A DNA stretch of 64,000 nt from a virus (taxonomy: Duplodnaviria > Caudoviricetes), in IMG/VR virus record IMGVR_UViG_3300035675_000001. The stretch is one strand, 5' to 3'. How positions within the stretch are numbered: the stretch's first letter is position 1; every line of letters begins with the position of its first letter. The notes below the pieces were generated by a model. The model was given only the letters and a program-made list of their open reading frames with translations. It made no database searches and had not been told where the DNA came from. Position numbers and translations under genes: made by a program. Positions 604 through 15,433 of this stretch are shown piece by piece.

Positions 604-605
604 AA

Positions 606-680
606 TGGTGCGCGTGGAGAGGATCGCACTCCCAACCTCCGCCGTGTCGAGGCGTTGCTCTGCTGCTGAGCTACACGCGC
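606..680 (-). tRNA. tRNA-Val(GAC)
   Basis: Acceptor GCGCGTG/CACGCGC, A-CCA; anticodon loop TC-GAC-AC (C33); T-loop TGCGATC. Confidence 0.9.
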
Positions 681-681
681 A

Positions 682-831: not shown

Positions 832-848
832 CCAGGATAGTTAATGCG

Positions 849-2136: not shown

Positions 2137-2208
2137 TGGAGCCGAAGGCCGGTGCTGCCCCGGCCTGGTCAAGTTTACAAAACTCGTCCCCTCGCTGGAG
2201 GCTTCGGC
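2137..2208 (-). tRNA. tRNA-Thr(TGT)
   Basis: Acceptor GCCGAAG/CTTCGGC, T-CCA; anticodon CGAGT-TTTGTAA-ACTTG; T-loop GGCAGCA; C8. Confidence 0.85.
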
Positions 2209-2250
2209 GTCAATACCTTAGTGCATAGGACGTGTTCCCCGTGGAACAAA

Positions 2251-2326
2251 TGGTGGGCTGGGCGGGCCACGATCCCGCAACCTGACGGTTAAGAGCCGCC
2301 TGCTCTGCCGATTGAGCTACCAACCC
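2251..2326 (-). tRNA. tRNA-Lys(CTT)
   Basis: Cloverleaf with CCA; loop CT-CTT-AA; T-loop ATCGTGG. Confidence 0.9.
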
Positions 2327-2332
2327 GTAAAA

Positions 2333-2407
2333 TGGTCGCTGCGCCCGGACTCGCACCGGGAACCGTCACCTTATGAGGGTGCCGCGCTACTATTGCGCCA
2401 CGCAGCG
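2333..2407 (-). tRNA. tRNA-Met or Ile2 (CAT)
   Basis: C1-G72 paired, so not initiator; loop CT-CAT-AA; T-loop TGCGAGT. Confidence 0.85.
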
Positions 2408-2411
2408 TTCG

Positions 2412-2466
2412 CCTGGCCTTGGTTCGCACCGTGTCTTCGGCACCACCATGACAAGACAGGGCCAGG
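2412..2466 (-). ncRNA. Candidate small structured RNA between tRNAs
   Basis: CCTGGCC/GGCCAGG closing stem, TGTCTT/AAGACA inner stem, GGT-GCGA-ACC GNRA hairpin. Confidence 0.4.
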
Positions 2467-2473
2467 TTTGAAG

Positions 2474-2549
2474 TGGAGCCAACCCAGGGACTTGCACCCT
2501 GCATCACCCGCTTACCAAGCGGGGTCACCGCTGTCTGTGAGTGGTTGGC
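2474..2549 (-). tRNA. tRNA-Thr(GGT)
   Basis: Acceptor GCCAACC/GGTTGGC, T-CCA; loop TT-GGT-AA; T-loop TGCAAGT; A8. Confidence 0.9.
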
Positions 2550-2552
2550 AAA

Positions 2553-2628
2553 TGGAGCGAACGACCGGCAATGATCCGGCAACCTGATGCTTGGAAGGCA
2601 CCTGCTCTGCCTATTGAGCTACGTTCGC
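2553..2628 (-). tRNA. tRNA-Gly(TCC)
   Basis: T73-CCA; loop CT-TCC-AA; T-loop ATCATTG. Confidence 0.9.
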
Positions 2629-2951
2629 GTTGGAAAACCTTGTTCGGCGCGGCGGACCTTTTTGGCGGCTTCACGAGCCTCCCGGCCCGCTTCCCATTCT
2701 TCCGGGGAAGGCACTGGATCAAGAATCTCGTCGCCGGGATGAAGCATCCCGTGGGACCAGCCGCCCTGGCCATCATCGTAGCCGACCGAGTGGTGGATAC
2801 CCCTGCCGATCTCGCGGAGATCGTAATAGCCGTTCCAGTGAGCCTTGACGACCCCCTGCGGCGTGCGGACGCGGATGACTTTTCCGCCGCCTGGGTAATC
2901 TTCCTCACCCTCCAGGAGCGTCTTTACGATGAATTGTGCCACGCTAATCAT
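2619..2951 (-). CDS. Hypothetical protein with N-terminal LLE-acidic motif
   Basis: Start re-assigned to MISVAQFIVKTLLEGEED because the longer ORF overlaps tRNAs; GTAGTTA 8 nt upstream. Confidence 0.65.
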   Translation of the reverse strand: MISVAQFIVKTLLEGEEDYPGGGKVIRVRTPQGVVKAHWNGYYDLREIGRGIHHSVGYDDGQGGWSHGMLHPGDEILDPVPSPEEWEAGREAREAAKKVRRAEQGFPTRT

Positions 2952-2985
2952 GTCGGCATAACTACGCGGGGACTTGAGGACAGAA

Positions 2986-3060
2986 TGGAGGCCAGCCGGG
3001 GAATCGCACCCCGCGCCACGGTTTTGCAGACCGGTCAGTTCGCTTGCTCTGTCGCTGGCC
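2986..3060 (-). tRNA. tRNA-Cys(GCA)
   Basis: T73-CCA; loop CT-GCA-AA; T-loop TGCGATT; G8. Confidence 0.9.
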
Positions 3061-3061
3061 C

Positions 3062-3137
3062 TGGAGCCTCCGGCTGGAATTGCACCAGCCACGTCCTGTT
3101 TACGAAACAGGCGCACCGCTGTCTGTGCTTCGGAGGC
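3062..3137 (-). tRNA. tRNA-Thr(CGT)
   Basis: Loop TT-CGT-AA; T-loop TGCAATT; A8. Confidence 0.9.
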
Positions 3138-3140
3138 AAA

Positions 3141-3215
3141 TGGTGGGAACGGCTGGTGCTGCCCCAGCGACCTTGAGTTTGTAGGACTCCTGCTCTACTG
3201 CTGAGCTACGCTCCC
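3141..3215 (-). tRNA. tRNA-Val(TAC)
   Basis: Loop CC-TAC-AA (C33); T-loop GGCAGCA. Confidence 0.9.
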
Positions 3216-3235
3216 GAAATCGGTTCTAAAAAGGC

Positions 3236-3964
3236 ATGAGTGAATTGTTTCGAGCACGGGTCGAGAAGTTTTTCCTGGAGTATGTCCTCCACGACAGCCC
3301 GCACAGCCGCAATCCGTTTGTCACGACGCACTGCCAACGCTACGTCCACTCCATGCTGTTCGCCGAGGCCGAGCTGAAAGAGGCCAAGGTGATCCTGGAA
3401 GTGGGCGCACCGGGCGCTTTCACCGAGGGCCTGCGGTCCATGCTGCCGGACCTGGTGATCGAAAACTCAAGCGCCGATCTCCGCACCGTCTTTACGGACA
3501 AGCGAGACTACTACGACTTCATCCTGAACATGGAGGTCATCGAGCACATGAAAGACCTGGACGTGCCGGAGGACTGGTTCCATCGGGATGCCTACGTCGG
3601 CGACGGCTTGAAAAATTTTGTAAACACTTGCTACCAGTGCTTGAAACCTGGCGGAAAGATGTTCTTGACGACCCCCAATCTCAGTTCCATCGGAACTCTT
3701 TGGAGGGTAATGAACTGTGGAAACCCATTTTCCTACGAGCTGCACATCCGCGAACTTTCAGTCAGTGATCTCTGGAAGGCGCTCACCGATGCCGGATTCA
3801 AGATCGACCGCTATACAACCATGCGTTGTTACGAGCAAAACCAGGTTCCACCGGACAAAGAGGCCCGAATCATGGGCTTCTTGCGCGAGATGAATCTGCC
3901 CACGGACAACCGCGATGAAGTCCAGTTCGTCTTGGCGTCCAAGCCTGTAGTTAAACCGCAATGA
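3236..3964 (+). CDS. Class I SAM-dependent methyltransferase
   Basis: ILEVGAPG motif I, MEVIEHM, LKPGGKMFLTTPN. Confidence 0.85.
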   Translation: MSELFRARVEKFFLEYVLHDSPHSRNPFVTTHCQRYVHSMLFAEAELKEAKVILEVGAPGAFTEGLRSMLPDLVIENSSADLRTVFTDKRDYYDFILNMEVIEHMKDLDVPEDWFHRDAYVGDGLKNFVNTCYQCLKPGGKMFLTTPNLSSIGTLWRVMNCGNPFSYELHIRELSVSDLWKALTDAGFKIDRYTTMRCYEQNQVPPDKEARIMGFLREMNLPTDNRDEVQFVLASKPVVKPQ

Positions 3965-4101
3965 CGACCTGGCTACTCATAGCGGTAGTTGCCGGACTGG
4001 CTTTCGCTGCCGGATGGTGGTGGAGGGGTCGCCGGAAACGCAGACAAATTCGGGTCGAGTTCGACATCGGCCCAGTAACATTGAAACAAAACTATGGTTA
4101 A
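3961..4101 (+). CDS. Small membrane protein (46 aa)
   Basis: MTTWLLIAVVAGLAFAAGWWWRGRRKRR...; ATGA overlap with upstream stop; GTAGTTA upstream. Confidence 0.5.
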   Translation: MTTWLLIAVVAGLAFAAGWWWRGRRKRRQIRVEFDIGPVTLKQNYG

Positions 4102-4630
4102 GATCACAACCGAACAACAAGTCCGTTTGCACGCGGCCTTCCTGACGGCAGCGGGTTCTCCCGCTCCGATTGAGGGAACGCCGGAATGGAGTGCCGCTCC
4201 TGCGGGAGTGGTCAACCTCATCGTGGACCCTGATGGCCGCGCAGCCCTTTGCCAGAGCGTAGCTGCTGGCACCGCCCAGGTGTCCGTCTCGGCTGACGCC
4301 GACCTTGGCACCGGGGTCCGAACAATCACCGGCACCATCGGGATCGAAGTCAGCGAAGCCTCTGCCGAAGCAGTGGAGATCACCGCCGATACGCCTGAGT
4401 TCAAGACCGTGACGCTTACCGTCACCGTTGAAATGCTCCCGGACGGCACGGCCAAGGTCACCGGCCACGGCAACCCCGACACGCTGTATCACGTCGAAGC
4501 CGCCGATGATGTCGCTGGCCCGTATGCTGAGATCGGGACCACCCTGTCGGATTCGACCGGCGTCGCTATCTTCATCGACCCGGATGCCGCTTCGCACACC
4601 ACTCGGTTTTATCGTCTTCGTTGGCCCTAA
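4094..4630 (+). CDS. Ig-like protein with Verrucomicrobia-type C-terminal domain
   Basis: Beta-rich N-terminal half; ends YHVEAADDVAGPY...FIDPDAASHTTRFYRLRWP. Confidence 0.65.
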   Translation: MVKITTEQQVRLHAAFLTAAGSPAPIEGTPEWSAAPAGVVNLIVDPDGRAALCQSVAAGTAQVSVSADADLGTGVRTITGTIGIEVSEASAEAVEITADTPEFKTVTLTVTVEMLPDGTAKVTGHGNPDTLYHVEAADDVAGPYAEIGTTLSDSTGVAIFIDPDAASHTTRFYRLRWP

Positions 4631-4701
4631 AGGCTGACGTTGTTGGTGGTCAGTCCAGTCGTTGACGGCCCGGAGCTGTTCTCCGGGCCGTTTCTTTGCA
4701 A

Positions 4702-4833
4702 TGGTGGGGACGATAATCCTTCAAGTTCGGCCCTATTCAGGCAAGGATTTTCGGAGGTTTATTTGAGACGGGATTTGAACCCGCGACCTCCCGCTTTTCA
4801 GGCGGGCGCTCTACCAGGCTGAGCTACGTCCCC
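4702..4833 (-). tRNA. tRNA-Phe(GAA) with a 55-nt insert between the T arm and the acceptor 3' strand
   Basis: 5' GGGGACG pairs with distal CGTCCCC-A-CCA; normal D arm; CCCGC-CTGAAAA-GCGGG; T-loop TTCAAAT; insert at 4713-4767. Confidence 0.8.
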
Positions 4834-4853
4834 ATAAATCTGTTCTACGCAAT

Positions 4854-5585
4854 ATGCTGACAATCGGAATCTTGAACTGCAAACGGCAGAATAACGTCGT
4901 GGCCCTGGTCAACCGTTATTCGGCCATGCCCATCGTCTCTCGCGTCACCGTGTGGAGCAGTCCGCCCGGCGACTTCCGCGTGAGCGACAACCCCAAACTC
5001 CTGACCGCGACCTGCGCCCCGGACTGGGGCATGTATGCCCGGTTCCAGTCGGTCCTCAACGCGCCCACGGAGTGGGTCATGACGGTCGATGACGACCTGT
5101 TCATCCCGGAGGAGTCGATCAAGGTCATGCTCGACGCCCGGATGAAGGACAAGGACAAGAGGATCAGCGGCATGTTCGGCAGACGGCCTTCCCAAACCCA
5201 GGGCTTTGCCGTGTTCAAAGACCTGGTGGACGAGGACTGCGAAATCGTCGTGGCCCGCGTCATGGTGTTTCACGTCAGCCTGATCGCCCGCTTCTTCGAT
5301 GTCGTGCGCGACCCGCGCTGGGAGGAGCTTTACGCCAAAGGCCGGGCCAATGGCTGGACAAAGACCACCAACATCGAGGACATCATCATGAGCTACACCG
5401 CGATGCGCGACACCGGCAGGCTCAACCAGATTCACAAGGTGCCCCACCAGGAGTTCGACGCGCCGGAGCCGATCTGGAAGATGCCGAACTTCTTCCCGTA
5501 TCGCCAAGCGGGCCTGACGTTCACCCAGCAGTTTTTCAACAACTGGTCCCACAGCGATCAGCCGACCGGCTGGACCGGCTGTTAA
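4854..5585 (+). CDS. GT-A fold glycosyltransferase (GT64/EXTL-like)
   Basis: VMTVDDDLFI DxD motif; NIEDIIMS resembles the EXTL NCEDI motif. Confidence 0.65.
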   Translation: MLTIGILNCKRQNNVVALVNRYSAMPIVSRVTVWSSPPGDFRVSDNPKLLTATCAPDWGMYARFQSVLNAPTEWVMTVDDDLFIPEESIKVMLDARMKDKDKRISGMFGRRPSQTQGFAVFKDLVDEDCEIVVARVMVFHVSLIARFFDVVRDPRWEELYAKGRANGWTKTTNIEDIIMSYTAMRDTGRLNQIHKVPHQEFDAPEPIWKMPNFFPYRQAGLTFTQQFFNNWSHSDQPTGWTGC

Positions 5586-5586
5586 A

Positions 5587-5661
5587 TGGTGCTCGCGGTT
5601 GGAATCCCACCAACGGCCTCAGCCTTCGCAGGGCTGCGCTCTATAACTGAGCTACGCGAGC
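5587..5661 (-). tRNA. tRNA-Arg(GCG)
   Basis: Loop CT-GCG-AA; T-loop TGGGATT. Confidence 0.9.
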
Positions 5662-5665
5662 AAAA

Positions 5666-5741
5666 TGGTGCCCCAAACTGGAATCTCACCAGTGGCCTTC
5701 GCCTTCGGAGGGCGACGCTCTATAGACTGAGCTACTGGGGC
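5666..5741 (-). tRNA. tRNA-Arg(CCG)
   Basis: Loop CT-CCG-AA; T-loop TGAGATT. Confidence 0.9.
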
Positions 5742-5742
5742 A

Positions 5743-5821
5743 TGGCGTTCCTGGCGGGACTCGCACCCGCTAGAGATTCGGCTTGAAAGGCCGACCGCTG
5801 GACGACTTTGCGCTCAGGAAC
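5743..5821 (-). tRNA. tRNA-Glu(TTC)
   Basis: Loop CT-TTC-AA; G73; T-loop TGCGAGT; A8. Confidence 0.88.
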
Positions 5822-5826
5822 AAAAA

Positions 5827-5903
5827 TGGTATCCCCGGTGGGATTCGCACCCACGATCTTCTGGTTGAGAACCAGGCGTGTTGGGCTGCTACACTACGGG
5901 GAC
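5827..5903 (-). tRNA. tRNA-Glu(CTC)
   Basis: Loop TT-CTC-AA; T-loop TGCGAAT. Confidence 0.9.
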
Positions 5904-5907
5904 AATC

Positions 5908-5977
5908 CACGGACAAGGAGAGCGACGTGGGAGGTTTCTCATTAGTGGTAAGATAACCCACATCAATTCGGCCCGTG
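5908..5977 (-). ncRNA. Minimal Y RNA-like RNA (Ro60-binding stem)
   Basis: CACGGGCCGA...GTGGGTTATCT...CCCAC...CCTTGTCCGTG; bulged-C helix and GUUAUCU as in Y RNAs. Confidence 0.7.
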
Positions 5978-5981
5978 AAAG

Positions 5982-6056
5982 TGGTCCCTGGGATCGGTAA
6001 CGCACCGATGTCTCCGGTTTTTCAGACCGGCGCTAATCTATCTCAGCTACCCAGGG
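5982..6056 (-). tRNA. tRNA-Phe(GAA), uninterrupted copy
   Basis: Loop CT-GAA-AA; T-loop TGCGTTA. Confidence 0.9.
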
Positions 6057-6057
6057 T

Positions 6058-6243
6058 TCAAGGCTCCAGCGTTTCCGCGAGCAGGAGGGCTGCTGCGAGA
6101 CGACGCGCCTCCCTGCGCGTCAGATGATGATAGACGGTCTCGCCTGCGGATGAGGACAAACTGACCTTGATGAAATTGGATCGTCGGGTCTTGGAAACCT
6201 CCACCCGATACTGCTTCGCTTTGCTGACAAGACGGTAGCTCAC
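6058..6243 (-). CDS. Hypothetical protein
   Basis: 61-aa ORF; ATGA overlap with upstream gene. Confidence 0.5.
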   Translation of the reverse strand: MSYRLVSKAKQYRVEVSKTRRSNFIKVSLSSSAGETVYHHLTRREARRLAAALLLAETLEP

Positions 6244-6647
6244 TCAGGGAACCGGGGGAGTTTGTGATCGTCAGCCTGCTTCTCGTAATACTCCAGCTTG
6301 GACCGAATATCGTTCAGCACTTTGGCCAGCTCGGCAGCAAAGCTCACTGGCTCCGGTTCCACTTTGGCGTGAATGATGACCTTCAAATGATCGGCTGCTT
6401 TCTTCTGCGCCCGCATCTCGATGCGGGTTGCGCCCGCCGCCCAGGCGAAGAACAGCGAGTTCAAAAACGCCAGGATGTAATGTGCCGAGCTATGGGACGC
6501 CGCGACCTCGGTCAGACGATAGATGGTGATGACCACGATGCCCAGGAACACCAGCACCCAAATTCTCCGCTTCACGATACGGTAGAGCGTCGTCCACACG
6601 TAGAGGACGTAGAGCTGCAACAGGATCGCTATGACCAAAAATGCCAT
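6240..6647 (-). CDS. Membrane protein (3 TM segments plus basic/coiled tail)
   Basis: Three hydrophobic stretches; GTATTTA upstream. Confidence 0.6.
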   Translation of the reverse strand: MAFLVIAILLQLYVLYVWTTLYRIVKRRIWVLVFLGIVVITIYRLTEVAASHSSAHYILAFLNSLFFAWAAGATRIEMRAQKKAADHLKVIIHAKVEPEPVSFAAELAKVLNDIRSKLEYYEKQADDHKLPRFPE

Positions 6648-6673
6648 GCCGGTCTAAATACGCAGGCTGAAAT

Positions 6674-6750
6674 TGGTAGCCGCAGTTGGAGTTGCACCAA
6701 CGACCTGACGCTTATCAAGCGCCTGCTCTGACTAGCTGAGCTACGCGGCC
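6674..6750 (-). tRNA. tRNA-Ile(GAT)
   Basis: Loop TT-GAT-AA; T-loop TGCAACT. Confidence 0.9.
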
Positions 6751-6753
6751 ACA

Positions 6754-6841
6754 TGGCGGCTGGTGCAGGATTTCCACCTGCGCGGGTTTTACCCCGTCCA
6801 CGGTTTTCGAGACCGGAACCTTGGTGCTCGGTCAACCAGCC
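6754..6841 (-). tRNA. tRNA-Ser(CGA)
   Basis: Long variable arm, G73; loop CT-CGA-AA; T-loop TGGAAAT. Confidence 0.9.
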
Positions 6842-6851
6842 GGAAAGATTT

Positions 6852-6975
6852 GACGGACAAGGGGAACCAAGGAGTTTTTGCTACCTCCGAGGTCACGGCA
6901 CATGGAGCCGTGAGTGAGAGTCGAACTCACATCGCTTCATTTACAGTGAAGATAATCCTCAGTAATCGGCCCGTC
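6852..6975 (-). ncRNA. YrlA-type Y RNA enclosing a circularly permuted tRNA-Tyr(GTA)-like domain
   Basis: GACGGGCCGA/TTGTCCGTC Ro stem; ACTGAGGA/TCCTTGGT; CTTCA-CTGTAAA-TGAAG; GTGAG-TTCGACT-CTCAC; TCACGGC-TCCATGT-GCCGTGA. Confidence 0.8.
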
Positions 6976-6979
6976 AAAA

Positions 6980-7067
6980 TGGCGGATGGTGCAGGATTTC
7001 CACCTGCGCTGGTGTTACCCAGTCCTCCGGCTTCCAACCGGGAACCTTGGTGCTCGGTCAACCATCC
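6980..7067 (-). tRNA. tRNA-Ser(GGA)
   Basis: Long variable arm, G73; loop TT-GGA-AG; T-loop TGGAAAT. Confidence 0.9.
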
Positions 7068-7084
7068 AAAAAGTTTACAAAAAG

Positions 7085-7173
7085 TGGCGGAGGGCACAGG
7101 AGTCCAACCTGTTCAGGTTTCACCCTGGCGTCGGTTTTCAAGACCGCCCCGTTCGACGTTCCGGCAGCCCTCC
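7085..7173 (-). tRNA. tRNA-Ser(TGA)
   Basis: Long variable arm, G73; loop CT-TGA-AA; T-loop TTGGACT. Confidence 0.9.
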
Positions 7174-7194
7174 GCAAGAAGGTAGTTAGCGCAG

Positions 7195-7641
7195 ATGCCG
7201 GAAAAGACATTAGCCTATCACCTGCTGCAAAAGTTTGAAGCAGACCGGGAGAAGATCGAGCGATACTCGTCCATAGCGGAACACTGCCCGCTCCCCGCGT
7301 TTATCGCTGGATCAGACGGCATTTCCATCCTCTACATCAACCCGGCCTACCGGGAATTGACCGGACGCAACATCGAAGAACTCCAGGACGGCAAGTGGGT
7401 TACGTCGGTTATTCACCCGGACGATCAGGCGTCAGTTATTGATGCCTGGAAATTGTTTACAAAAACTGTCCAGCGACAGGCTCATCATCACCGCTATGTT
7501 CACGTCGATGGCCGGGTCACGGATGCGGTGACTGTAGTGGACCGGGTTGAAGGCAACGGCTACGTTGGCTTCATCATTCCCCACTGCGGCAAAGAGGACT
7601 GCCCGATGCAACAGTTGGTCCCACTTGGTCACCACACGTAA
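7195..7641 (+). CDS. Stand-alone PAS-domain protein
   Basis: ILYINPAYRELTGRNIEELQDGKWVTSVIHPDD is a typical PAS_3/PAS_4 signature; no output domain. Confidence 0.8.
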   Translation: MPEKTLAYHLLQKFEADREKIERYSSIAEHCPLPAFIAGSDGISILYINPAYRELTGRNIEELQDGKWVTSVIHPDDQASVIDAWKLFTKTVQRQAHHHRYVHVDGRVTDAVTVVDRVEGNGYVGFIIPHCGKEDCPMQQLVPLGHHT

Positions 7642-7642
7642 A

Positions 7643-7718
7643 TGGTGCTCGCGGCAGGAATCTCACCTGCGACCAGCCGCTTAGGAAACGACCGCTCTGA
7701 TAACTGAGCTACGCGAGC
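7643..7718 (-). tRNA. tRNA-Arg(CCT)
   Basis: Loop TT-CCT-AA; T-loop TGAGATT. Confidence 0.9.
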
Positions 7719-7719
7719 G

Positions 7720-7796
7720 TGGCACCCCTGCCAGGATTCCCACCTGGATCAGACCGCTTAGAAGACGGTCGCTCTAATACATTGAGCTACAGGGGC
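7720..7796 (-). tRNA. tRNA-Arg(TCT)
   Basis: Loop CT-TCT-AA; T-loop TGGGAAT. Confidence 0.9.
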
Positions 7797-7808
7797 TTAC
7801 AACTAAAA

Positions 7809-7884
7809 TGGCTGCCAAGACTGGGGACGATCCAGTAACCGCCCGGTTAACAGCCGGGTGCTCTACCAGTTGAGCTACTTGGCA
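7809..7884 (-). tRNA. tRNA-Asn(GTT)
   Basis: T1-A72, G73; loop CT-GTT-AA; T-loop ATCGTCC. Confidence 0.9.
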
Positions 7885-7890
7885 ATGAAA

Positions 7891-8106
7891 TCAGGCCGGA
7901 ATCGGCGTCGAGCCAGGGATGAACGGGGCTTTGGTGCCGCCGCCTCCACTGGGGTTGGCCGGATTCGGAATGAGCGTGGACTCGGCAACGTAATCGGCAG
8001 CGGTCCCGCCGCCGCCATCAGCCTTGGCCGAGTTTGGAACGAGGGTCGCGCCTGGAGGCGTCGTATCGCCCGTCCGAACCGGCGCTGGAATGATCGTCAT
8101 GTCCAT
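7891..8106 (-). CDS. Small Pro/Gly-rich protein with internal duplication
   Basis: TLVPNSAKADGGGGT / TLIPNPANPSGGGGT; GTAGTTA 6 nt upstream. Confidence 0.55.
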   Translation of the reverse strand: MDMTIIPAPVRTGDTTPPGATLVPNSAKADGGGGTAADYVAESTLIPNPANPSGGGGTKAPFIPGSTPIPA

Positions 8107-8122
8107 CGCTCTTAACTACAAA

Positions 8123-8199
8123 TGGTCAGCGCGGAGGGCTTCGATCCCTCGGCCTCCTGGCCCCGAACCAGGCGCTCTGCCAAGCTGAGCTACGCGCTG
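8123..8199 (-). tRNA. tRNA-Pro(CGG)
   Basis: C1-G72, A73, G37; T-loop ATCGAAG. Confidence 0.9.
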
Positions 8200-8206
8200 A
8201 TGAAAA

Positions 8207-8282
8207 TGGTCGGGCTGGCCGGGTATGATCCGGCGACCTTCTGGCCCCCAGCCAGACGCGCTGCCAACTGCGCTACAGCCCG
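8207..8282 (-). tRNA. tRNA-Pro(GGG)
   Basis: C1-G72; loop CT-GGG-GG; T-loop ATCATAC. Confidence 0.9.
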
Positions 8283-8286
8283 AAAA

Positions 8287-8361
8287 TGGTCAGGGCGGGG
8301 AGTTTCGCAATCCCGGCCTCCTGGTCCCAAGCCAGGCGCTCTGCTTCTGAGCTACGCCCTG
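8287..8361 (-). tRNA. tRNA-Pro(TGG)
   Basis: C1-G72; loop CT-TGG-GA; T-loop TGCGAAA with a T53.C61 mismatch. Confidence 0.85.
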
Positions 8362-8387
8362 ATCGCCGTGTAGTTACGGTGAAAGTT

Positions 8388-10454
8388 ATGGAAATCACAT
8401 ACGTTCCAGACCCGTCCAAAGCGGATGGCAAACCGGTTGTTGCCGAGGTTGTTGCCCTGGGCACGACTGTTGTTCAATTCGCCACGCCACAACAGGTTTA
8501 CGTGACGGGCGGGACGCTCGCCACGAACGTCCAGTTCACCGGCTCAATTTCGACCGACATCGGCAACGTCAAAATCGAAGACCAGAACGGAAACTACGCC
8601 GAAATGCCAGCGGCGAGTGACGCCAAGACTGGAGCCAACAAAGCCCTACTCGTTCAGCACGTTGACGAAACCGGAACTCCGCTCCGCCAATCGACGCAGG
8701 TCAGCATCATGCAGAACCAGGGGACGCTCGCAACAAGCGCCCTCCAGGCTACCGGAATCGCACTGGCCTCGGTCATCCTGAACAACCAGGGCACCCAGGC
8801 CACAGCAGCTCTCCAGCAAGCAGGCAACGGCGCTCTGAGCGTAATTGTAAACAACCAGGGCACCCAGGCCACGGTCGCAGCTCAGGATAGCCAGACAGCG
8901 ATCCTGGCCGTGATGATGAACAATCAGGGCACGCTGACTCCGGCAACGGACTCGACGACCCTGACGGCGGTCATGAACAACCAGGGGACGCAGGCGACCT
9001 CGGCCAAGCAAGATGCCACGAACAACCTGCTGACGGTCATCATGAACGCGCAGGGGACGCAGGCGACCAGCGAGGTCGCTGAAAGCATTACGTTCTCGGC
9101 CATCCTGAACAACCAAGGAACCCTGGCGACCAGCGCCCAACAGACCGCCGCACAGGCGACGCTGACCACGGTCATGAACAGCCAGGGGACACAGAGCACG
9201 GCGCTGCTCTCGCCCATCCTGAATGCTTTCGGAACTCTCGCTACGGCGGCAGCTCAAGCCAACGGAAATACAGCTCTCCAAAATCTGCTGACGCCCATCC
9301 TGAACGCCCAGGGCACGCAGAGCACTGCCCTGCTGTTGCCCATCCTGAACAACCAGGGAACTCAGGCGACCAGCGCCAACCAGGAGACCCAAATCACGGC
9401 GCTGAACACGCTGATCGACACCCTGCGGTCGGTCGATACGGTTGGGACCAACCTCGAAGTGACGCTGTTCAATGGCGTTTACGCAGTCGGACCCAGTGTG
9501 GCTGCCAACGTCAACGGCTACACCCGGCACACCGTCCAGCACGTCATCATGAACGGCAGCGTGGCCGCGCACATCGAGACCAGCCTTGACGGCACGACCT
9601 GGAATACCGAAGCGGTCGATACGGCTTCAAATCTTCAACGGCTCACGGGAGCCTGCAAATACATCCGCGCCGTTTACATGGGCGGAGCGGGCACGCTCAG
9701 CACCTTCCTGAACTCGGCAGCCGGAAACGGAGGCGGAGCGCCCAACGGCGCAGGCCAAGCCGAGCTTTGCATCGTCGGCACCGTTGCCAGCACCCTGGGG
9801 TCAGCCGTGGCTTTCGAGACGGGAGGGGCCAACAGCTTAGGCTTCCACTACGAGCCGCCTGCCGGTTCGACTTCGATTTTTGAAGGTTCGTGGGACGGCA
9901 GCCATTGGGTTGACATAACGCTGCGCCAAATGGGAGCGCACGGCTACACAAGCATCACCGATGACACCCACCAGGATTGGGTCGGTTCATGCGCGACATG
10001 GCGCTATTTTCGCCTGCGAATCACCCAGGGCGGCACAGGTGTTGGAGTTATCAGAGGCAGGTTCAGCTATGCTCCCAGCACGATTGAAGGCGTCGAAAAC
10101 CAGGCGATGCCCCACCGCATCGGCGCATCATCGCAATCAAAGAGCTTTTCCTTTACTGGCGTCACAAGCAACGGGACCATTTGGGCACCCACTACATCTT
10201 ACCACCGGCTCTACATCACGGACTTGTTCTTCACGGTCGATGCTACGACTACTGTCATCTTCTCCGATGGCAGCAACGCAGAAGGCAAACTCGTCTTCAA
10301 GGGCAAATTCAAACCCGCGTCTGGCGAAAGCTCCTATGTCCCGGCTGCTTTTTCACTCCCGCACGTATTCACCGGACCCAACCGGGCGCTGATGTTCACG
10401 CAAAGCGGAGGCGCAGAAGTTGACGGCGTGGTTCACGGCTACGAAGCAGAATAA
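8388..10454 (+). CDS. Repeat-rich fibre-like (probable virion) protein
   Basis: Many (N/S/A)QGT(Q/L)AT repeats followed by beta-rich C-terminal domains; start moved out of tRNA-Pro (in-frame GTG at 8379 also possible). Confidence 0.7.
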   Translation: MEITYVPDPSKADGKPVVAEVVALGTTVVQFATPQQVYVTGGTLATNVQFTGSISTDIGNVKIEDQNGNYAEMPAASDAKTGANKALLVQHVDETGTPLRQSTQVSIMQNQGTLATSALQATGIALASVILNNQGTQATAALQQAGNGALSVIVNNQGTQATVAAQDSQTAILAVMMNNQGTLTPATDSTTLTAVMNNQGTQATSAKQDATNNLLTVIMNAQGTQATSEVAESITFSAILNNQGTLATSAQQTAAQATLTTVMNSQGTQSTALLSPILNAFGTLATAAAQANGNTALQNLLTPILNAQGTQSTALLLPILNNQGTQATSANQETQITALNTLIDTLRSVDTVGTNLEVTLFNGVYAVGPSVAANVNGYTRHTVQHVIMNGSVAAHIETSLDGTTWNTEAVDTASNLQRLTGACKYIRAVYMGGAGTLSTFLNSAAGNGGGAPNGAGQAELCIVGTVASTLGSAVAFETGGANSLGFHYEPPAGSTSIFEGSWDGSHWVDITLRQMGAHGYTSITDDTHQDWVGSCATWRYFRLRITQGGTGVGVIRGRFSYAPSTIEGVENQAMPHRIGASSQSKSFSFTGVTSNGTIWAPTTSYHRLYITDLFFTVDATTTVIFSDGSNAEGKLVFKGKFKPASGESSYVPAAFSLPHVFTGPNRALMFTQSGGAEVDGVVHGYEAE

Positions 10455-10458
10455 TTTT

Positions 10459-12417
10459 ATGAGCCTACTCGACATCAATCAGACTCAGGTCGCAGCAGTC
10501 ATGGCCCCGGTTATCAATAACCAGGGGACACAGGCGACGGAGCAGACGCTCATCACCGTCATGAACAGTCAGGGCACGCAGGCAACTGCTGCCCTCCAGG
10601 CCAACAGCAACGCTCTCCTGACCACCATCATGAACAACCAGGGGACGCTCGCCGATTACGACGACGCGACTCTCCAGGCGGTCATGAACAACCAGGGGAC
10701 GTTGGCCACGAGCAGCAAACAGGACGCTCAAACTGCCATCCTGGGTGCGATGCTGAACAACCAGGGAACACTGACTCCTGTAACTGGTGGAGCCACAGAA
10801 ATCACTTTGGTCCGACTTGCTAATGACCAAGGCACGTTGGCCACGAGTGCGAATCAAGCCGCGAGCAATGCCTTGTTAACGGTCGTAATGAATGACCAGG
10901 GCACATTGGCGACCAGCTCCTATCAGGCGGTCCAGCTCGAACTCCTGGGCTTGATTCTGAACAGCCAGGGAACTCAAAACACGTCCAGCCTGGCGACCAG
11001 CGCCAACCAGGCGCAGGCCAACAGCTCCCTCACAGTCATTCAGAACAACCAAGGAACGCAGGCCACGGCATCGAACCAAAGCACTGAAATCAGCCTGCTC
11101 AGCCTGATCCTGAACGCCCAGGGGACTCAAGGCGAAGGGCTGAACGCACTCTCACAACAGCAAGCGGACACGGTAACGACTTACGGACCAACCGGAACTC
11201 TAGCCTCAGCGCGAGTGGCCACGCTGATGACGACTGATCCGAACTCGGTAAGCGTTGACGCATTTGGTCGGCTGCGCGTCAGCAACGCGGACTACCGGTT
11301 TGACGGCCAGCTTGTTTACCAGGTCAACGCTGACCTATGGGACTCCGCCTGGAACAGCACTGGCACGGTGACCTATGACCGCAAGAACCGAATGGCTCAG
11401 CTCACTTGCGCGGCTAACGGCACCAGCGTCATGCAGAGCCACTATCACGTCCCCTACACGCCCGGACGCGGCCAGCTCGCTTTCGTCACGTTTGCCGGAA
11501 CGGCTGCGCCAGCCGAAAACACCTACCACCGGGTAGGCTACTTCGACGAGACAAACGGTATTTTCCTGGAGCGCACCAGCGCGGGAGCAAGCTTGACACT
11601 CAAAAGCTCAACCGATGCGGGGTCCGAGACAGTTTTACAGGCAAACTGGAACATCGACAAGATGGACGGCACCGGCCCCAGCGGGTTAACGCTCGACCTG
11701 ACCAAATCTCAAATCCTGTTTATCCAGCTCCAGGCGCTCTACATCGGTCGTGTAATCGTCGGCTTCGACATCGACGGCGTTGCCTGGCCGGTCCATCAGT
11801 TCACGCACGCCAACAAGTTCGTCAAGCCCTACATTGGCAACGCGAGCTTGCCGGTGCGCTACGAAGTGGGTTCAACGGGCGTCAATACCGCCCAGCTTAA
11901 TCCCGTCTGCGCCTCCGTCATCAGCGAAGGCGGCGGGCCGCTGATCGACATTCCGGCCCGCACATTCACCGCAGGCAACGGTGCAACACCCATCAGCGTA
12001 AACGCCCGGAGACCCGTGCTTTCAATCAGGCCCAAAGCGCAGTTTAACCAAAACCAGAACGAAGGCATTGTTCTGCCGTCTGACCTGTCGATCCGAAATT
12101 CGACTGCGGACATCTACGTTGAAGTCATCCGCAACGCCGTGCTCACGGGAGCATCCTGGACAAGCGTGGATGCGGTCAACAGCGTTTGTGAATATGATGT
12201 CGCGGCAACTGCCGTCAGCGGAGGCCAAACGGTTTTCTCAGGCTACAGCAACGTCTCGTCAGGGCTATCAACAAGCATCAAGGACAACCTGCTCAGCCGC
12301 CTGACCATCGTCTATTCAGAACTTCTTCAAACAGCGGACACGCTCACCATCGTCTGCACATCTCTCGGCGGTGCTGCTTCAACTGTCGCCGCGCTTAACT
12401 GGAAAGAAATTCGTTGA
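10459..12417 (+). CDS. Repeat-rich fibre-like protein, paralog of the upstream gene in its N-terminal half
   Basis: NNQGT(Q/L)AT repeats, then VSVDAFGRLRVS and a beta-rich C-terminal domain of a kind seen in phage virion proteins. Confidence 0.7.
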   Translation: MSLLDINQTQVAAVMAPVINNQGTQATEQTLITVMNSQGTQATAALQANSNALLTTIMNNQGTLADYDDATLQAVMNNQGTLATSSKQDAQTAILGAMLNNQGTLTPVTGGATEITLVRLANDQGTLATSANQAASNALLTVVMNDQGTLATSSYQAVQLELLGLILNSQGTQNTSSLATSANQAQANSSLTVIQNNQGTQATASNQSTEISLLSLILNAQGTQGEGLNALSQQQADTVTTYGPTGTLASARVATLMTTDPNSVSVDAFGRLRVSNADYRFDGQLVYQVNADLWDSAWNSTGTVTYDRKNRMAQLTCAANGTSVMQSHYHVPYTPGRGQLAFVTFAGTAAPAENTYHRVGYFDETNGIFLERTSAGASLTLKSSTDAGSETVLQANWNIDKMDGTGPSGLTLDLTKSQILFIQLQALYIGRVIVGFDIDGVAWPVHQFTHANKFVKPYIGNASLPVRYEVGSTGVNTAQLNPVCASVISEGGGPLIDIPARTFTAGNGATPISVNARRPVLSIRPKAQFNQNQNEGIVLPSDLSIRNSTADIYVEVIRNAVLTGASWTSVDAVNSVCEYDVAATAVSGGQTVFSGYSNVSSGLSTSIKDNLLSRLTIVYSELLQTADTLTIVCTSLGGAASTVAALNWKEIR

Positions 12418-12502
12418 CGTAAGCCAGTCACGCCGGTCGCTGGCATAACCAACGACCGGCATGGCAGGGGCGTGTTGCTGCTCTGCTTCATCAGCAGGAC
12501 AA

Positions 12503-12579
12503 TGGCGGGCACGACCGGACTCGCACCGGCTGACTTCGCCGTGACAGGGCGCTGATTCGACTCCTTCATCTCCGTGCCC
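12503..12579 (-). tRNA. tRNA-Asp(GTC)
   Basis: G73; loop CT-GTC-AC; T-loop TGCGAGT; G8. Confidence 0.9.
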
Positions 12580-12585
12580 GTAAAA

Positions 12586-12673
12586 TGGTGGGAGGCGCTG
12601 GTTACGCTCCAGCCGCCACTACCCGTGATGTTGAAGGCACCGGTTTTACAGACCGGCCACGGGACCGCCTCCC
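12586..12673 (-). tRNA. tRNA-Tyr(GTA)-like RNA lacking a D arm
   Basis: Acceptor GGGAGGC/GCCTCCC, A-CCA; CCGGT-CTGTAAA-ACCGG; only 10 nt between acceptor and anticodon stems; T-loop AGCGTAA. Confidence 0.75.
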
Positions 12674-12675
12674 AT

Positions 12676-12764
12676 TTACCCAGGTCCAAACCACTGTGGC
12701 TCTGACCCCGTTACTTCCGCTGTGGCGCGTAGGGGCCTTCCTCCACTCTTTCTGGACTGGGCAA
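12676..12764 (-). ncRNA. Candidate rod-like structured RNA
   Basis: TTGCCCAG/CTGGGTAA, TCCAGA/TTTGGA, GTGG/CCAC, GGCCCC/GGGGTC nested stems. Confidence 0.5.
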
Positions 12765-12775
12765 GTAGCTAAAGC

Positions 12776-13297
12776 ATGAAATTGATACCGGTTCTCATGG
12801 CGTGTTTGGTTCTTTCAGGCTGTATGATCGTCAACGTGAAAGAACGGGGCTTTCCGCCCGAACACCAAATTGTAAACTTTGATCGGGTGACCAGCGACCT
12901 CTACCGGGGCGCTCAACCGACCATCGCCAGCCTCGATTACCTCAAGTCGTTGGGGATCAAAAGCGTCGTCTGCCTGCGAGAACCTTCTGACATTCTGCCG
13001 GGCGAACCAATATCGGTCTCGGCGCTCGGCCTGCGCTTCGAGAACCTGCCGATGGACGGCGTGACGGCTCCCAGCGAAGCGGACATAGACAAGATGCTGG
13101 ACGTGATCGACGCGCTGCCCAAGCCGGTCTTCATCCACTGCCAGTTCGGCTGCGACCGCACCGGGACCGTGATCGCCTGCTGGCGCATCAAGCATGGCTG
13201 GGACAACGACGCAGCCTACCGGGAAGCCAAGCAATACGGCATCTCGCCGCTGCTCCCGGCGCTTCATCATCTCATCAAGACCTACAAGAAAAAGTAA
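12776..13297 (+). CDS. Cys-based protein tyrosine/dual-specificity phosphatase, lipoprotein
   Basis: HCQFGCDRTG (CX5R), LYRGAQP; lipobox LVLSGC. Confidence 0.85.
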   Translation: MKLIPVLMACLVLSGCMIVNVKERGFPPEHQIVNFDRVTSDLYRGAQPTIASLDYLKSLGIKSVVCLREPSDILPGEPISVSALGLRFENLPMDGVTAPSEADIDKMLDVIDALPKPVFIHCQFGCDRTGTVIACWRIKHGWDNDAAYREAKQYGISPLLPALHHLIKTYKKK

Positions 13298-13385
13298 CGG
13301 GCAAGGGTTGGCGTCGGAGATGCCTGGTTGCCCAGGCGGTTTCCATACCAATGATAGAAGATAACCGACATCCATTCGGCCCGTT
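13296..13385 (-). ncRNA. Y RNA-like RNA (Ro60-binding stem)
   Basis: AACGGGCCGA...GTCGGTTATCT...CCGAC...CCTTGCCCGTT; inner hairpins TTCTAT/ATGGAA and GCCTGG-GCAA-CCAGGC. Confidence 0.75.
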
Positions 13386-13387
13386 GA

Positions 13388-13490
13388 ATCACCACCGGTA
13401 TTGCAACCCGCACCGCACATCAGCACTTCTTCGGCCTCGACGGCTGTGCTTTCGCTGGTCATGGGAGTCGAACCCATTGTTCACGGTGAT
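13388..13490 (-). ncRNA. tRNA-mimic RNA with a 5'-proximal canonical T arm (YrlA-like order)
   Basis: ATCACC/GGTGAT closing stem; ATGGG-TTCGACT-CCCAT; further hairpins; no anticodon arm or CCA end. Confidence 0.6.
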
Positions 13491-13498
13491 GAAAATTA

Positions 13499-13571
13499 TG
13501 GCACGGAGTGTGGGTGCTGCCCCCACCAGGACTGGTTTTGGAGACCGGTCTGCACGGCTGGTGCCCTCCGT
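13499..13571 (-). tRNA. tRNA-Trp(CCA), atypical compact fold
   Basis: G73-CCA; loop CT-CCA-AA; D arm GCAC-CAGCC-GTGC; extended anticodon stem; T-loop GGCAGCA. Confidence 0.8.
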
Positions 13572-13572
13572 A

Positions 13573-13666
13573 TTCAGCACCCCCTTTTACGCTGACGGTC
13601 AGAGTCGCGTTCACAGGCTCGCACGACCGGCCTGCTGCCGTCCCACGGATAAGCCAAGGTGCCGAA
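13573..13666 (-). ncRNA. Candidate pseudoknotted RNA
   Basis: TTCGGCACC/GGTGCTGAA; GACGG/CCGTC; CAGGC/GCCTG whose loop GGTCGTG can pair with downstream CGCGACT. Confidence 0.5.
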
Positions 13667-13668
13667 AT

Positions 13669-13744
13669 TGGTGGAAGCGCCGGGACTCGCACCCGGAACA
13701 TCGACGATGCCATCGTCGCGCTCTACTGATTGAGCTACGCCCCC
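13669..13744 (-). tRNA. tRNA-Ala(GGC)
   Basis: G3.T70, A32-T38; T-loop TGCGAGT. Confidence 0.9.
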
Positions 13745-13751
13745 GAAAGAG

Positions 13752-13843
13752 CCGGGCCGAGTTTGCTTCGAGGTTGCAACCCCGTTGCCTTATCGTGCGG
13801 GATGTGCGCCCGCCCTCCGTTCATGAGACGGAGTGCTCCCCGG
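13752..13843 (-). ncRNA. Permuted tRNA-like RNA with a CAT anticodon-like arm
   Basis: CCGGG/CCCGG closure; CTCCGT-CTCATGA-ACGGAG; GCGGG-CGCACAT-CCCGC; no CCA end. Confidence 0.5.
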
Positions 13844-13854
13844 ATACCGACGTT

Positions 13855-13928
13855 TGGTGGAATCGGAGGGAGTCCCACCCTCATCTCCCGCGTGCGAGGC
13901 GGGCGCTCTAGTGCTGAGCTACGACCCC
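13855..13928 (-). tRNA. tRNA-Ala(CGC)
   Basis: G3.T70; loop CT-CGC-AC; T-loop TGGGACT. Confidence 0.9.
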
Positions 13929-13933
13929 AAAAA

Positions 13934-14797
13934 ATGAAACCGCGCTGCGTCTCGATCTTTCCGACCAACCACTGCAACGCGCACTGCTACTACTGCGCCT
14001 ACCAGACCAGTTACGCCTTCGCGGATGCGACCACGATGTGCCGCAAGACGGACCAGCTCTCACGCGAGCTGCTGGCCAAGGCGCTGGACGAGGCGAAAAT
14101 CTGCAACAACATCGAAATCTCTGGCGGCGGCGAACCCCTTTGCCATCCCGACTTCGCCTGGTTTGCCAGGGAGGTCGTGGCCCGTGGGATCGGGGCCAAG
14201 CTCATTACCAACGGCGTGCTGCTCACCGGCGAGCTGCTGGAAGTCTCCGCCCAGCTCAGCTACGTGGAGTTCTCGATCAATTACTACGACCACCTGAGCT
14301 TCGAGGCCAACCGCAGTATGCCTCGTGGCTGGTTTGAAACCGTGACGGCCAACGTCAGAAATCTGATGAGCAGCCCGCACTCCTGCGTGATCGGGGCCAA
14401 GGTCGTGCTCACAGGCCGGAACTACCAGACGCTCCCGCAGATCAAGCAATACCTGGGGTCGCTGGGAATCCATCGCCTGGTCGTGACGCCCAGCTACAGC
14501 CGAGACGCGAGCGACGTGCCCCCGCCTGCGGTGTTTGGGATGGACCGGATCGCGCACGTCAAACCGAAGTGCGCTTACTGCCAGCGCCGAATCGACCATC
14601 CGGTCATCGGAGCTGACGGGAAATACTACGCCTGCTGCTACTTCACCTACATGCCGTCCATGCAGATCGGCGACCTGGCCACGCAGAGCTTGTCAAACGT
14701 GTTAGACAACGGACCCGTGTTCGACCAGGGCCTCTGCTGCCGGGTCGAGCAGGTGATCGCCGACTACCGGCGCGGGGTCGTCACTGCGTTTCCGTAA
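13934..14797 (+). CDS. Radical SAM protein with C-terminal Cys-rich (twitch/SPASM-like) region
   Basis: CNAHCYYC, SGGGEPL, TNG, YACCY; start moved out of tRNA-Ala. Confidence 0.85.
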   Translation: MKPRCVSIFPTNHCNAHCYYCAYQTSYAFADATTMCRKTDQLSRELLAKALDEAKICNNIEISGGGEPLCHPDFAWFAREVVARGIGAKLITNGVLLTGELLEVSAQLSYVEFSINYYDHLSFEANRSMPRGWFETVTANVRNLMSSPHSCVIGAKVVLTGRNYQTLPQIKQYLGSLGIHRLVVTPSYSRDASDVPPPAVFGMDRIAHVKPKCAYCQRRIDHPVIGADGKYYACCYFTYMPSMQIGDLATQSLSNVLDNGPVFDQGLCCRVEQVIADYRRGVVTAFP

Positions 14798-14799
14798 AA

Positions 14800-14928
14800 G
14801 GAGCCATGCGGCGGGATTTGAACCCGCGCTCTGGATACTCGTGTCACCTTTCTCCAGGATTTGGTGCGACGCGCCACTTGGCCTCCCCGAAGTGTGACAC
14901 CCCCAGGTCGGTTGCAGTCGCCACAGGC
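14800..14928 (-). ncRNA. tRNA/tmRNA-like RNA (129 nt) with canonical T arm
   Basis: GCCTGTG/CGCATGGC acceptor-like stem with one bulge; CGAC then CTGG..GTGTCAC/GTGACAC..CCAG; GCGGG-TTCAAAT-CCCGC; ends TCC. Confidence 0.6.
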
Positions 14929-14934
14929 ATAAAT

Positions 14935-15010
14935 TGGTGGAAGTGATGGGACTCGCACCCACAACCTCAAGCTTGCAAAGCTCGCGCTCTACTAATTGAG
15001 CTACACCCCC
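14935..15010 (-). tRNA. tRNA-Ala(TGC)
   Basis: G3.T70; loop TT-TGC-AA; T-loop TGCGAGT. Confidence 0.9.
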
Positions 15011-15012
15011 AA

Positions 15013-15135
15013 TCCGAAACCGCCTGCTGTTCGGCAAGCCTCACTCCCCACAGCCGTAGAGGGACCGGTTTCCCCGGCTGAGCGTAGCGGCATTCAGCCA
15101 GGCGGAAGTCTCTTTCAACCGCCCAGCTTATCGGA
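15013..15135 (-). ncRNA. Candidate multi-hairpin structured RNA
   Basis: TCCGA/TCGGA closure; GGGCGG/CCGCCT; GGCTGA/TCAGCC; CCGG-GGAAA-CCGG. Confidence 0.45.
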
Positions 15136-15141
15136 AAATAT

Positions 15142-15266
15142 ACGGAGGCCGGTATCCAGCCCGGACTCACGGCCTTGAACGGAACGCCTGTTGCGGTCAG
15201 CGAAATCGCCTCCTACCAGGTGTCCACCGCAGCCGGGAGCTTCGCATTGGGTTGCGAGCACTCCGC
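15142..15266 (-). ncRNA. Candidate tRNA-like structured RNA
   Basis: GCGGAG/CTCCGT closure; TCGCA-ACCCAA-TGCGA; TGCGGT/ACCGCA; CCGG-GCTGGATA-CCGG. Confidence 0.45.
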
Positions 15267-15272
15267 GTTAAA

Positions 15273-15346
15273 TGGAGCGGGTGAGCGGTAACGATCCGCC
15301 GTCTCAGCGTTGGCAACGCCGTATTCTGCCATTGAACCACACCCGC
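15273..15346 (-). tRNA. tRNA-Gly(GCC)
   Basis: T73; loop TT-GCC-AA; T-loop ATCGTTA. Confidence 0.9.
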
Positions 15347-15351
15347 AGAAA

Positions 15352-15429
15352 TGGGGTGGACGACCGGACTTGCACCGGCACCGGGCAGGTTCACAACCTG
15401 CGGCTACCACTATTTGAGCTACGTCCACC
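15352..15429 (-). tRNA. tRNA-His(GTG)
   Basis: G-1:C73 encoded; loop TT-GTG-AA; T-loop TGCAAGT. Confidence 0.9.
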
Positions 15430-15433
15430 ATGA

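Follow-up and report, generated by a model that had tools for sequence, protein, structure and literature searches.

To our knowledge, tRNAs outside organelles are taken to share one cloverleaf, and the known exceptions alter the lengths of stems and not the wiring of the core. Class II tRNA-Tyr(GUA) combines a 5-bp anticodon stem with a 7-nt CUGUAAA loop (U33, GUA, A37), A73 and CCA at about 85–90 nt, sits among tRNA genes, and has a variable arm branching off the core immediately past the anticodon stem; the class of RNA described here is alike in each of these respects. Unlike class II tRNA-Tyr, however, our class is without a D hairpin, its D strand and D loop appear to have moved into the loop of the variable arm, and its acceptor and T stems divide as 8/4 rather than 7/5. 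The (8/4) tRNAs and allo-tRNAs of Mukai et al. (Nucleic Acids Res 2016; PMC5389517) are found in bacteria, phages and tRNA gene clusters, and they share with our class these settings, an 8+4 = 12-bp branch and a best Rfam match to tRNA-Sec, but they retain the D hairpin and the (8/4) species given there are Ser and His. Allo-tRNAs have other anticodons, whereas our class has only GUA when the anticodon is left free in the search, and neither an (8/4) tRNA-Tyr nor the word ‘pseudoknot’ occurs in the text of PMC5389517 covered by a term search. D-armless mitochondrial tRNAs (e.g., mt-tRNA-Ser) also have a short connector between acceptor and anticodon stems, but these are small, flexible organellar molecules whose connector is without demonstrated D-helix re-formation (PMC7609411), whereas the RNA studied here is of full length (88 nt), is encoded by phages and bacteria, and is predicted to rebuild the helix with a distant strand. 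The YrlA Y RNA (RF02553) likewise has a rearranged order of tRNA elements, and a YrlA-like RNA and Ro60 are encoded in the same phage as our gene; YrlA differs in having no anticodon arm or aminoacyl acceptor end and in placing a permuted T-then-D module on a Ro60-binding stem, and RF02553 gave no match at the Tyr locus. In the open-access literature we found no D-arm-less or pseudoknotted bacterial or phage tRNA, and none with a D helix formed through the variable loop.

The gene lies in a window of 64,000 nt (IMG/VR record IMGVR_UViG_3300035675_000001; Duplodnaviria, Caudoviricetes) that is part of a large phage genome of about 59% G+C, with genes for a family-A DNA polymerase, NAD ligase, DnaB, baseplate J and virion proteins, and a neighbouring virion protein was found on a 222-kb contig. 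A tRNA array on the minus strand (600–15430) holds 24 genes called by ARAGORN and about 8 more found by Rfam, and its T loops (UGCRAnn, AUCRUnn, UGGRAnn, GGCAGCA, AGCGUAA) include none with T54-T55-C56. ARAGORN did not call the gene at 12673–12586, Rfam RF00005 gave no match at the locus up to E = 10 (gathering threshold 29 bits), and the best Rfam match there was tRNA-Sec, which at 25.2 bits falls short of its gathering score of 47. Read on the minus strand, the 5′ half runs GGGAGGC, GGTCCCGTGG (10 nt) and CCGGT CTGTAAA ACCGG, and the 3′ half runs through a 26-nt region to GCTGG AGCGTAA CCAGC, GCCTCCC, A and CCA (Table 1). This reading bears out an initial annotation, made from the letters alone, in which the acceptor stem, A73, CCA and the anticodon arm were perfect and only 10 nt lay between the two stems; in RNA form, GGUCCCGUGG is all that separates the acceptor GGGAGGC from the anticodon arm. 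No D hairpin is possible in these 10 nt, nor in any of the 65 relatives described below. The T loop of the gene has no T54-T55, as in all tRNAs of its array, 2 nt separate the variable-arm stem (GCC/GGC) from the T stem, and G17 (12657) with U35 (12639) is a possible G.U extension of the anticodon arm. An acceptor-plus-CCA scan of the window also returned candidates at 13539–13632 (inside an ORF called as a gene in contig L044), 7932–8001, 1129–1195 and 35–132, which were rejected as being without an anticodon arm or T arm.

Table 1. Features of the tRNA(GUA) gene, its array and related loci. Positions are those of the window unless a contig is named; position p within the gene is 12674 − coordinate.
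Feature	Position	Strand	Basis or remark
Whole tRNA(GUA) gene, 88 nt, encoded CCA	12586–12673	minus	sequence read; 113 bits with family model R1
Acceptor stem 5′ strand, nt 1–8 (GGGAGGCG)	12666–12673	minus	pairs with 12590–12597; all 8 pairs covary
2-nt linker, nt 9–10, GU (UU in most relatives)	12664–12665	minus	parse of 34 viral/metagenome members; column counts
Remnant D strand, nt 11–16, CCCGUG	12658–12663	minus	5′ strand of predicted re-routed D helix; pairs with 12622–12627
Anticodon arm, nt 18–34: 5-bp stem, loop CUGUAAA	12640–12656	minus	99.7% paired, 3 covarying pairs in family
Anticodon GUA	12647–12649	minus	sequence
Variable-arm stem 5′ strand, nt 36–38, GCC	12636–12638	minus	pairs with 12615–12617
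A-rich connector, nt 39–46 (UUCAACAU)	12628–12635	minus	first part of variable-arm loop
D-helix 3′ strand, nt 47–52, CACGGG	12622–12627	minus	in variable-arm loop; exact complement of nt 11–16; covariation
Elbow (D-loop-like) motif, nt 53–56, UAGU	12618–12621	minus	column counts against T-loop type
Variable-arm stem 3′ strand, nt 57–59, GGC	12615–12617	minus	covariation; RNAalifold
T arm, nt 62–76: 4-bp stem CUGG/CCAG, loop AGCGUAA (12602–12608)	12598–12612	minus	T stem 92.5% paired, 3 covarying pairs
Acceptor stem 3′ strand, nt 77–84 (CGCCUCCC)	12590–12597	minus	all 8 pairs covary in family
Discriminator A (A73 equivalent) and CCA	12586–12589	minus	sequence; ACCA in most relatives
tRNA-Asp(GUC), starts 6 nt downstream	12503–12579	minus	Rfam 41.8 bits
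Second GTA-anticodon RNA, 68 nt, low G+C	6903–6970	minus	Rfam tRNA 23.4 bits
Phosphatase-like (dual-specificity) gene in array	12776–13297	plus	
Radical-SAM/SPASM gene in array	13934–14797	plus	
Methyltransferase gene in array	3236–3964	plus	
Ro60/TROVE protein	L047 730–2433		
YrlA-like Y RNA	L047 2866–2929		42 bits
tmRNA	L047 3214–3639		112 bits
L016-group 8/4 tRNA(GUA)	L016:912–996; L017:9595–9679; L027:10305–10389; seven more IMG/VR loci; L042:8140–8224 (Rhodobacter phage RcXuper)		

Taken by itself, the sequence of the gene offers modest evidence for a helix. The initial annotation had noted that CCCGTG is the exact complement of CACGGG in the 26-nt variable region, which is so, and the minimum free energy (MFE) fold of the single sequence uses all 6 of these pairs, stacked on the anticodon stem. 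The z-score of that fold is −1.45, no significant gain over shuffles, and a Watson–Crick helix of at least 6 bp arises by chance in 2.4% of 20,000 shuffles of the 10-nt against the 26-nt segment. Decisive support for the predicted re-routed helix is given by the comparative data.

Because the collections contained no close relatives of the phage, homologs were sought by DNA pattern. Searching 12300–13000 against isolated phages with blastn gave no match, and the same program found generic tRNA similarity only for the 6.3-kb array. Relatives of the adjacent virion protein are about 35% identical in IMG/VR, where no tRNAs lie nearby, and about 50% identical at their closest in a set of 5.8 billion proteins, with none above about 56% in any collection searched; those of about 50% identity that we fetched were without the tRNA array. 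L070, a distant relative with a 39-tRNA array, was set aside, its tRNA-Tyr being of a different, hairpin-bearing kind. A metagenome scan with a pattern based on the loops of the anticodon and T arms yielded 4–5 distinct sequences, the true homologs being L075 (= L078), L076, L079 and L077 (= L020), with the same 10-nt D region in 4 of 4. The pattern AGCGTAA plus ACCA produced chance matches only, and the viral pattern CTGTAAA...GGAGCGTAACC recovered one true member (L020) and mostly another family, the L016 group (Table 1). That group is similar to our class in being 8/4 with GUA and A73-CCA, in its AGCGUAA T loop in many members, and in the motif rule set out below (UAGU with AGCGUAA, GG with UUCGA), but differs in its Sec-like hairpin D arm, its unpaired 13-nt variable region and its want of a pseudoknot; the copy in Rhodobacter phage RcXuper is unannotated and stands directly before an annotated canonical tRNA-Tyr.

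A pattern independent of the T loop gave 36 member loci among 38 matches in IMG/VR and 33 members among 48 matches in species-representative bacterial genomes. The distinct homologs number 65 in all, drawn from bacterial genomes, metagenomes and viral contigs, and the cultured Rhizobium phage RHph_N3_2 carries a further one; neither Rfam nor ARAGORN recognized any member tested. Scored with R1, a covariance model trained on the five sequences found first, the 65 distinct members range from 40 to 113 bits, the window gene having 113, and the unannotated RHph_N3_2 member reaches 62 bits. In that 43-kb phage the stretch L190 1484–1644 (MN988526.1 39882–40042) comprises the member at 39882–39970, 10 nt and a weak YrlA-like match (34.9 bits), with no other annotated tRNA nearby. 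The search patterns fixed the columns TCC, G17, the anticodon loop, U35-G36 and C38, and the family is invariant at these columns for that reason.

All members share one parse, which begins with an 8-bp acceptor stem, a 2-nt linker (mostly UU), a 6-nt D strand and a single G, and continues with a 5-bp anticodon stem around CUGUAAA, a single U, a GNC triplet and an A-rich stretch. This connector is 6–11 nt long in relatives, with two nearly invariant A, and is followed by the 6-nt D complement, 4–9 nt holding YGG or AGU, a second GNC, 2–3 nt, a 4-bp T stem with a 7-nt loop, the 8-nt acceptor strand, A (mostly) and CCA. In the parse of all members, the two GNC triplets of each are mutually complementary. 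In the window gene the D complement sits inside an 18-nt variable-arm loop, such that nt 11–16/47–52 crosses nt 36–38/57–59, and the predicted fold is for this reason a pseudoknot with two crossing long-range helices. The initial annotation had described a helix enclosing the anticodon arm, and its pairing of D strand and variable region stands, although not as a single nested helix, given the second covarying stem. It had also proposed TAGTGG as D-loop-like; a D-loop-like element is there, but it is UAGU, the GG belonging to the variable-arm stem.

Covariation was assessed in alignment A4, which comprises 65 sequences and was fitted to the D helix; its model included neither the variable-arm stem nor the eighth acceptor pair. 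Across A4, 97.3% of cells are paired against a shuffled mean of 71%, counts that describe related sequences and are not probabilities; the observed score of the whole structure was reached in 0 of 500 shuffles, and sliding the partners by 1–3 columns lowers pairing to about 39–57%. The D helix is 95.9% paired, and CCCGTG/CACGGG changes on both sides in 4 of its 6 pairs among the 65 sequences (one pair, for example, being CG 26, UA 16, GC 12, UG 6 and GU 4), the remaining two pairs being CC/GG fixed by the search pattern. In the variable-arm stem, the middle pair is UA in 27 sequences, CG in 23, GC in 9 and AU in 1. Structure-blind MAFFT alignment of 5 sequences (A1) also has 4 of 6 D-helix pairs covarying, and in the MAFFT alignment of 63 sequences (A2) the D helix is 77–80% paired, with about one third of rows one column out of register, and the variable-arm stem is paired in 63 of 63. 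A full set of 6 of 6 pairs forms in 78% of sequences when each D strand is set against the variable region of the same member, compared with 17.5% against the variable regions of other members.

The same alignments bear on the acceptor/T branch and on the elbow. For the window gene alone, 7/5 and 8/4 are both readable, but the eighth acceptor pair (8–65) is present in 64 of 65 sequences and the fifth T-stem pair of the 7/5 alternative in only 17 of 65, and the branch we predict is for this reason 8/4, not 7/5. Elbow motif and T loop go together: all 38 members with a TTCRA-type T loop have GG in the motif, and all 20 with AGCRUWA, the window gene included, have A-G (AGU or AGC). The second G of the motif hardly varies, and both T-loop types have C56. 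Such columns would be expected if the elbow dinucleotide stood in for G18-G19 and touched T-loop positions 55–56. In effect, the ordinary 5′ D strand and D loop would be relocated behind the anticodon arm, and the strand that remains would replace the 3′ D strand, leading into position 26.

To summarize the proposed mechanism, nt 11–16 would pair with nt 47–52 in the variable-arm loop to form a D-like helix atop the anticodon stem, bringing the D-loop-like motif (UAGU; YGG in relatives) beside the T loop, and with the 12-bp acceptor/T branch preserved as 8+4 the RNA would adopt an L-shaped fold. The gene would be transcribed within the array and processed by RNase P, and the host TyrRS would charge the product through A73, G34-U35 and the variable arm for decoding of UAY. 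We regard the class as a conserved non-cloverleaf design carried by phages and by bacterial chromosomal tRNA-gene islands, and we think it probable that the gene encodes a functional, array-borne tRNA-Tyr that is expressed, charged and used in decoding.

With the anticodon left free and the family-specific columns still fixed, 35 of 35 structure-valid matches read GTA, and the other 9 matches were not tRNA-like. At least 5 ordinary tRNAs accompany the member at 46 of the 66 member-bearing loci, and at least 10 do so at 28; another Tyr tRNA is present at only 6 of 66, plus 2 found by the model. The Tyr–Asp neighbour pair of the window recurs in L075, L076, L147, L129 and L133. In arrays of 28–34 tRNAs, among them those of a Planctomycetaceae MAG and of Singulisphaera sp. 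PoT (member at L163 3781–3871), ARAGORN finds no Tyr tRNA, and the stretch retrieved contains no GUA decoder other than the member. Both tRNA-Tyr designs and both T-loop types co-exist in one phage, as at L107 5523–5608 and L109 4311–4398, where a canonical class II tRNA-Tyr (AGCAUUA T loop) comes directly after the pseudoknotted one (UUCAACU). In a Verrucomicrobiae MAG (G005) the member belongs to a divergent, lower-scoring island of 22 tRNAs, and a canonical tRNA-Tyr (L175) is found elsewhere; the pseudoknotted class is thus not the housekeeping tRNA. Given the canonical neighbours in L107 and L109 and the housekeeping tRNA-Tyr of the MAG, the class is not demonstrably essential.

These canonical copies, in some phages and one MAG, can also be cited for a role outside translation, in which the RNA would be a tRNA-shaped decoy or regulator, acting, for example, as sponge or bait for a nuclease or sensor of tRNA-Tyr, or as a substrate of the phage's Ro60/Y-RNA machinery. 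Such a role, which we judge improbable, would suit the non-canonical core and a T loop without T54-Psi55, the Ro60 gene, YrlA-like RNA and tmRNA some 10 kb upstream in the same phage, and the finding that a phage tRNA-Tyr neutralises Retron-Eco7 (PMC12673091). Against it, the member is the sole GUA tRNA in most arrays, amid otherwise complete canonical sets, and the features that EF-Tu, the ribosome and TyrRS would read (the 12-bp branch, A73, CCA, U33, A37 and the 5-bp anticodon stem) are conserved and covarying; decoy and decoding roles are, moreover, compatible with each other.

Returning to the decoding tRNA that we favour, its fold calls for the D helix and the variable-arm stem to be present together, and we infer that they form simultaneously. 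It is quite unlikely, in our estimation, that the two covarying helices are alternatives, with either the nested helix of the initial annotation or the variable-arm hairpin present at any moment, which would make the RNA a conformational switch or else a D-armless tRNA of flexible shape. The variable-arm stem does have just 3 bp, and the predictors disagree: the single-sequence MFE fold takes the D helix, and RNAalifold, run unprompted on A2, returns the variable-arm stem together with the 8-bp acceptor and the 4-bp T stem. Both programs predict nested structures only, essentially every member keeps both helices, and loop lengths of 6–11 nt and 4–9 nt accommodate the two at once. That elbow motif and T loop change together also fits a single compact fold with the motif at the elbow.

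The gene itself is stable across data sets, the identical 88 nt being found in JGI contig L043, ENA contig L044 and a Logan contig of another study (run X6), which speaks against a deletion in assembly. Over 18,625 positions L043 and the window disagree at 3, every one outside the gene, and in a strain variant of about 98% (run X7, record 5) the sole change within the gene is C>U at nt 44, in the unpaired connector. Possible divergent homologs on short Logan contigs (run X7, records 6 and 7) could be rebuilt only in part and inconsistently, and were left out. RNA runs contained only about 6% of the sampled words. A decaying pseudo-tRNA, or a D arm deleted in assembly, might have been suspected from the rejection of the gene by ARAGORN and Rfam, the frequency of pseudo-tRNAs in phage arrays and the second, degenerate GTA RNA at 6903–6970, but is ruled out for practical purposes by the identical sequence in independent assemblies, by an overall length that is kept, the D region being shorter by about 10 nt and the variable region longer by about 12, and by compensatory changes in all five helices among 65 homologs. 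The initial annotation had preferred a re-wired tRNA to a pseudogene and had named an assembly deletion, or homologs without the compensating helix, as evidence to the contrary; neither was found, because the helix is conserved through compensatory changes across the homologs and the independent assemblies are identical. Its remark that both GTA-anticodon RNAs of the window are non-canonical also holds, the second having only 4 acceptor pairs in its 68 nt. That RNA has a good anticodon arm, a T arm with a TTCGACT loop and a tiny D region, and may be a pseudo-tRNA or tRNA mimic.

Several other elements accompany the array. The dual-specificity phosphatase-like gene is directly upstream of the Tyr gene, and the array-interleaved proteins could be RNA-modifying enzymes; the array-embedded ORFs include radical-SAM, methyltransferase, glycosyltransferase and phosphatase domains only, and no aminoacyl-tRNA synthetase. 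The Ro60 gene, YrlA-like RNA and tmRNA (L047 730–3639) are situated about 5–8 kb upstream of the window start. A relative of about 50% identity (L045/L071) has a YrlA-like RNA and a tmRNA beside the virion gene and almost no tRNA array, and at L045 22060–22146 (minus strand) it encodes a tRNA of 87 nt whose anticodon loop is enlarged and to which ARAGORN assigns the four-base anticodon ‘gctg’. In the Verrucomicrobiae MAG, the 22 tRNAs of the island (L180, C15:25500–37500) have UGCRA/AGCRU T loops, none with T54-T55, and the dispersed housekeeping tRNAs are normal. Since this island shares the odd T loops of the window array and its member scores 90 bits with R1, there are hints of a verrucomicrobial host or lineage for the phage.

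Why a phage tRNA-Tyr might be re-wired can be considered by analogy. tRNA arrays have been discussed as possible anti-defence devices (PMC12803027), and the Retron-Eco7 effector PtuAB cuts E. coli tRNA-Tyr in its variable loop, the neutralising phage tRNA-Tyr having a different variable loop (PMC12673091). We tentatively raise, as a possibility we hold to be less than even, that the re-wiring serves counter-defence, in that a buried variable loop might evade tRNA-Tyr nucleases such as PtuAB with compatibility with TyrRS and the ribosome kept. Were this true, the Tyr gene would belong in this phage to a ‘stealth’ set of tRNAs whose T loops all do without T54-Psi55.

The locus presents a full-length, apparently functional tRNA in which the D helix would be built from a strand after the anticodon arm, a design conserved with covariation in phages of many habitats, in tRNA islands of Verrucomicrobiota, Planctomycetota and Proteobacteria, and in at least one cultured phage. 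The pseudoknotted tRNA-Tyr would provide a natural scaffold for tRNA engineering. If confirmed, it would represent a second viable topology for the tRNA core and would expose a blind spot of tRNA annotation, with arrays seemingly lacking Tyr having one after all, and it would offer a testable case for why mobile tRNA sets diverge from those of their hosts, including through evasion of defence.
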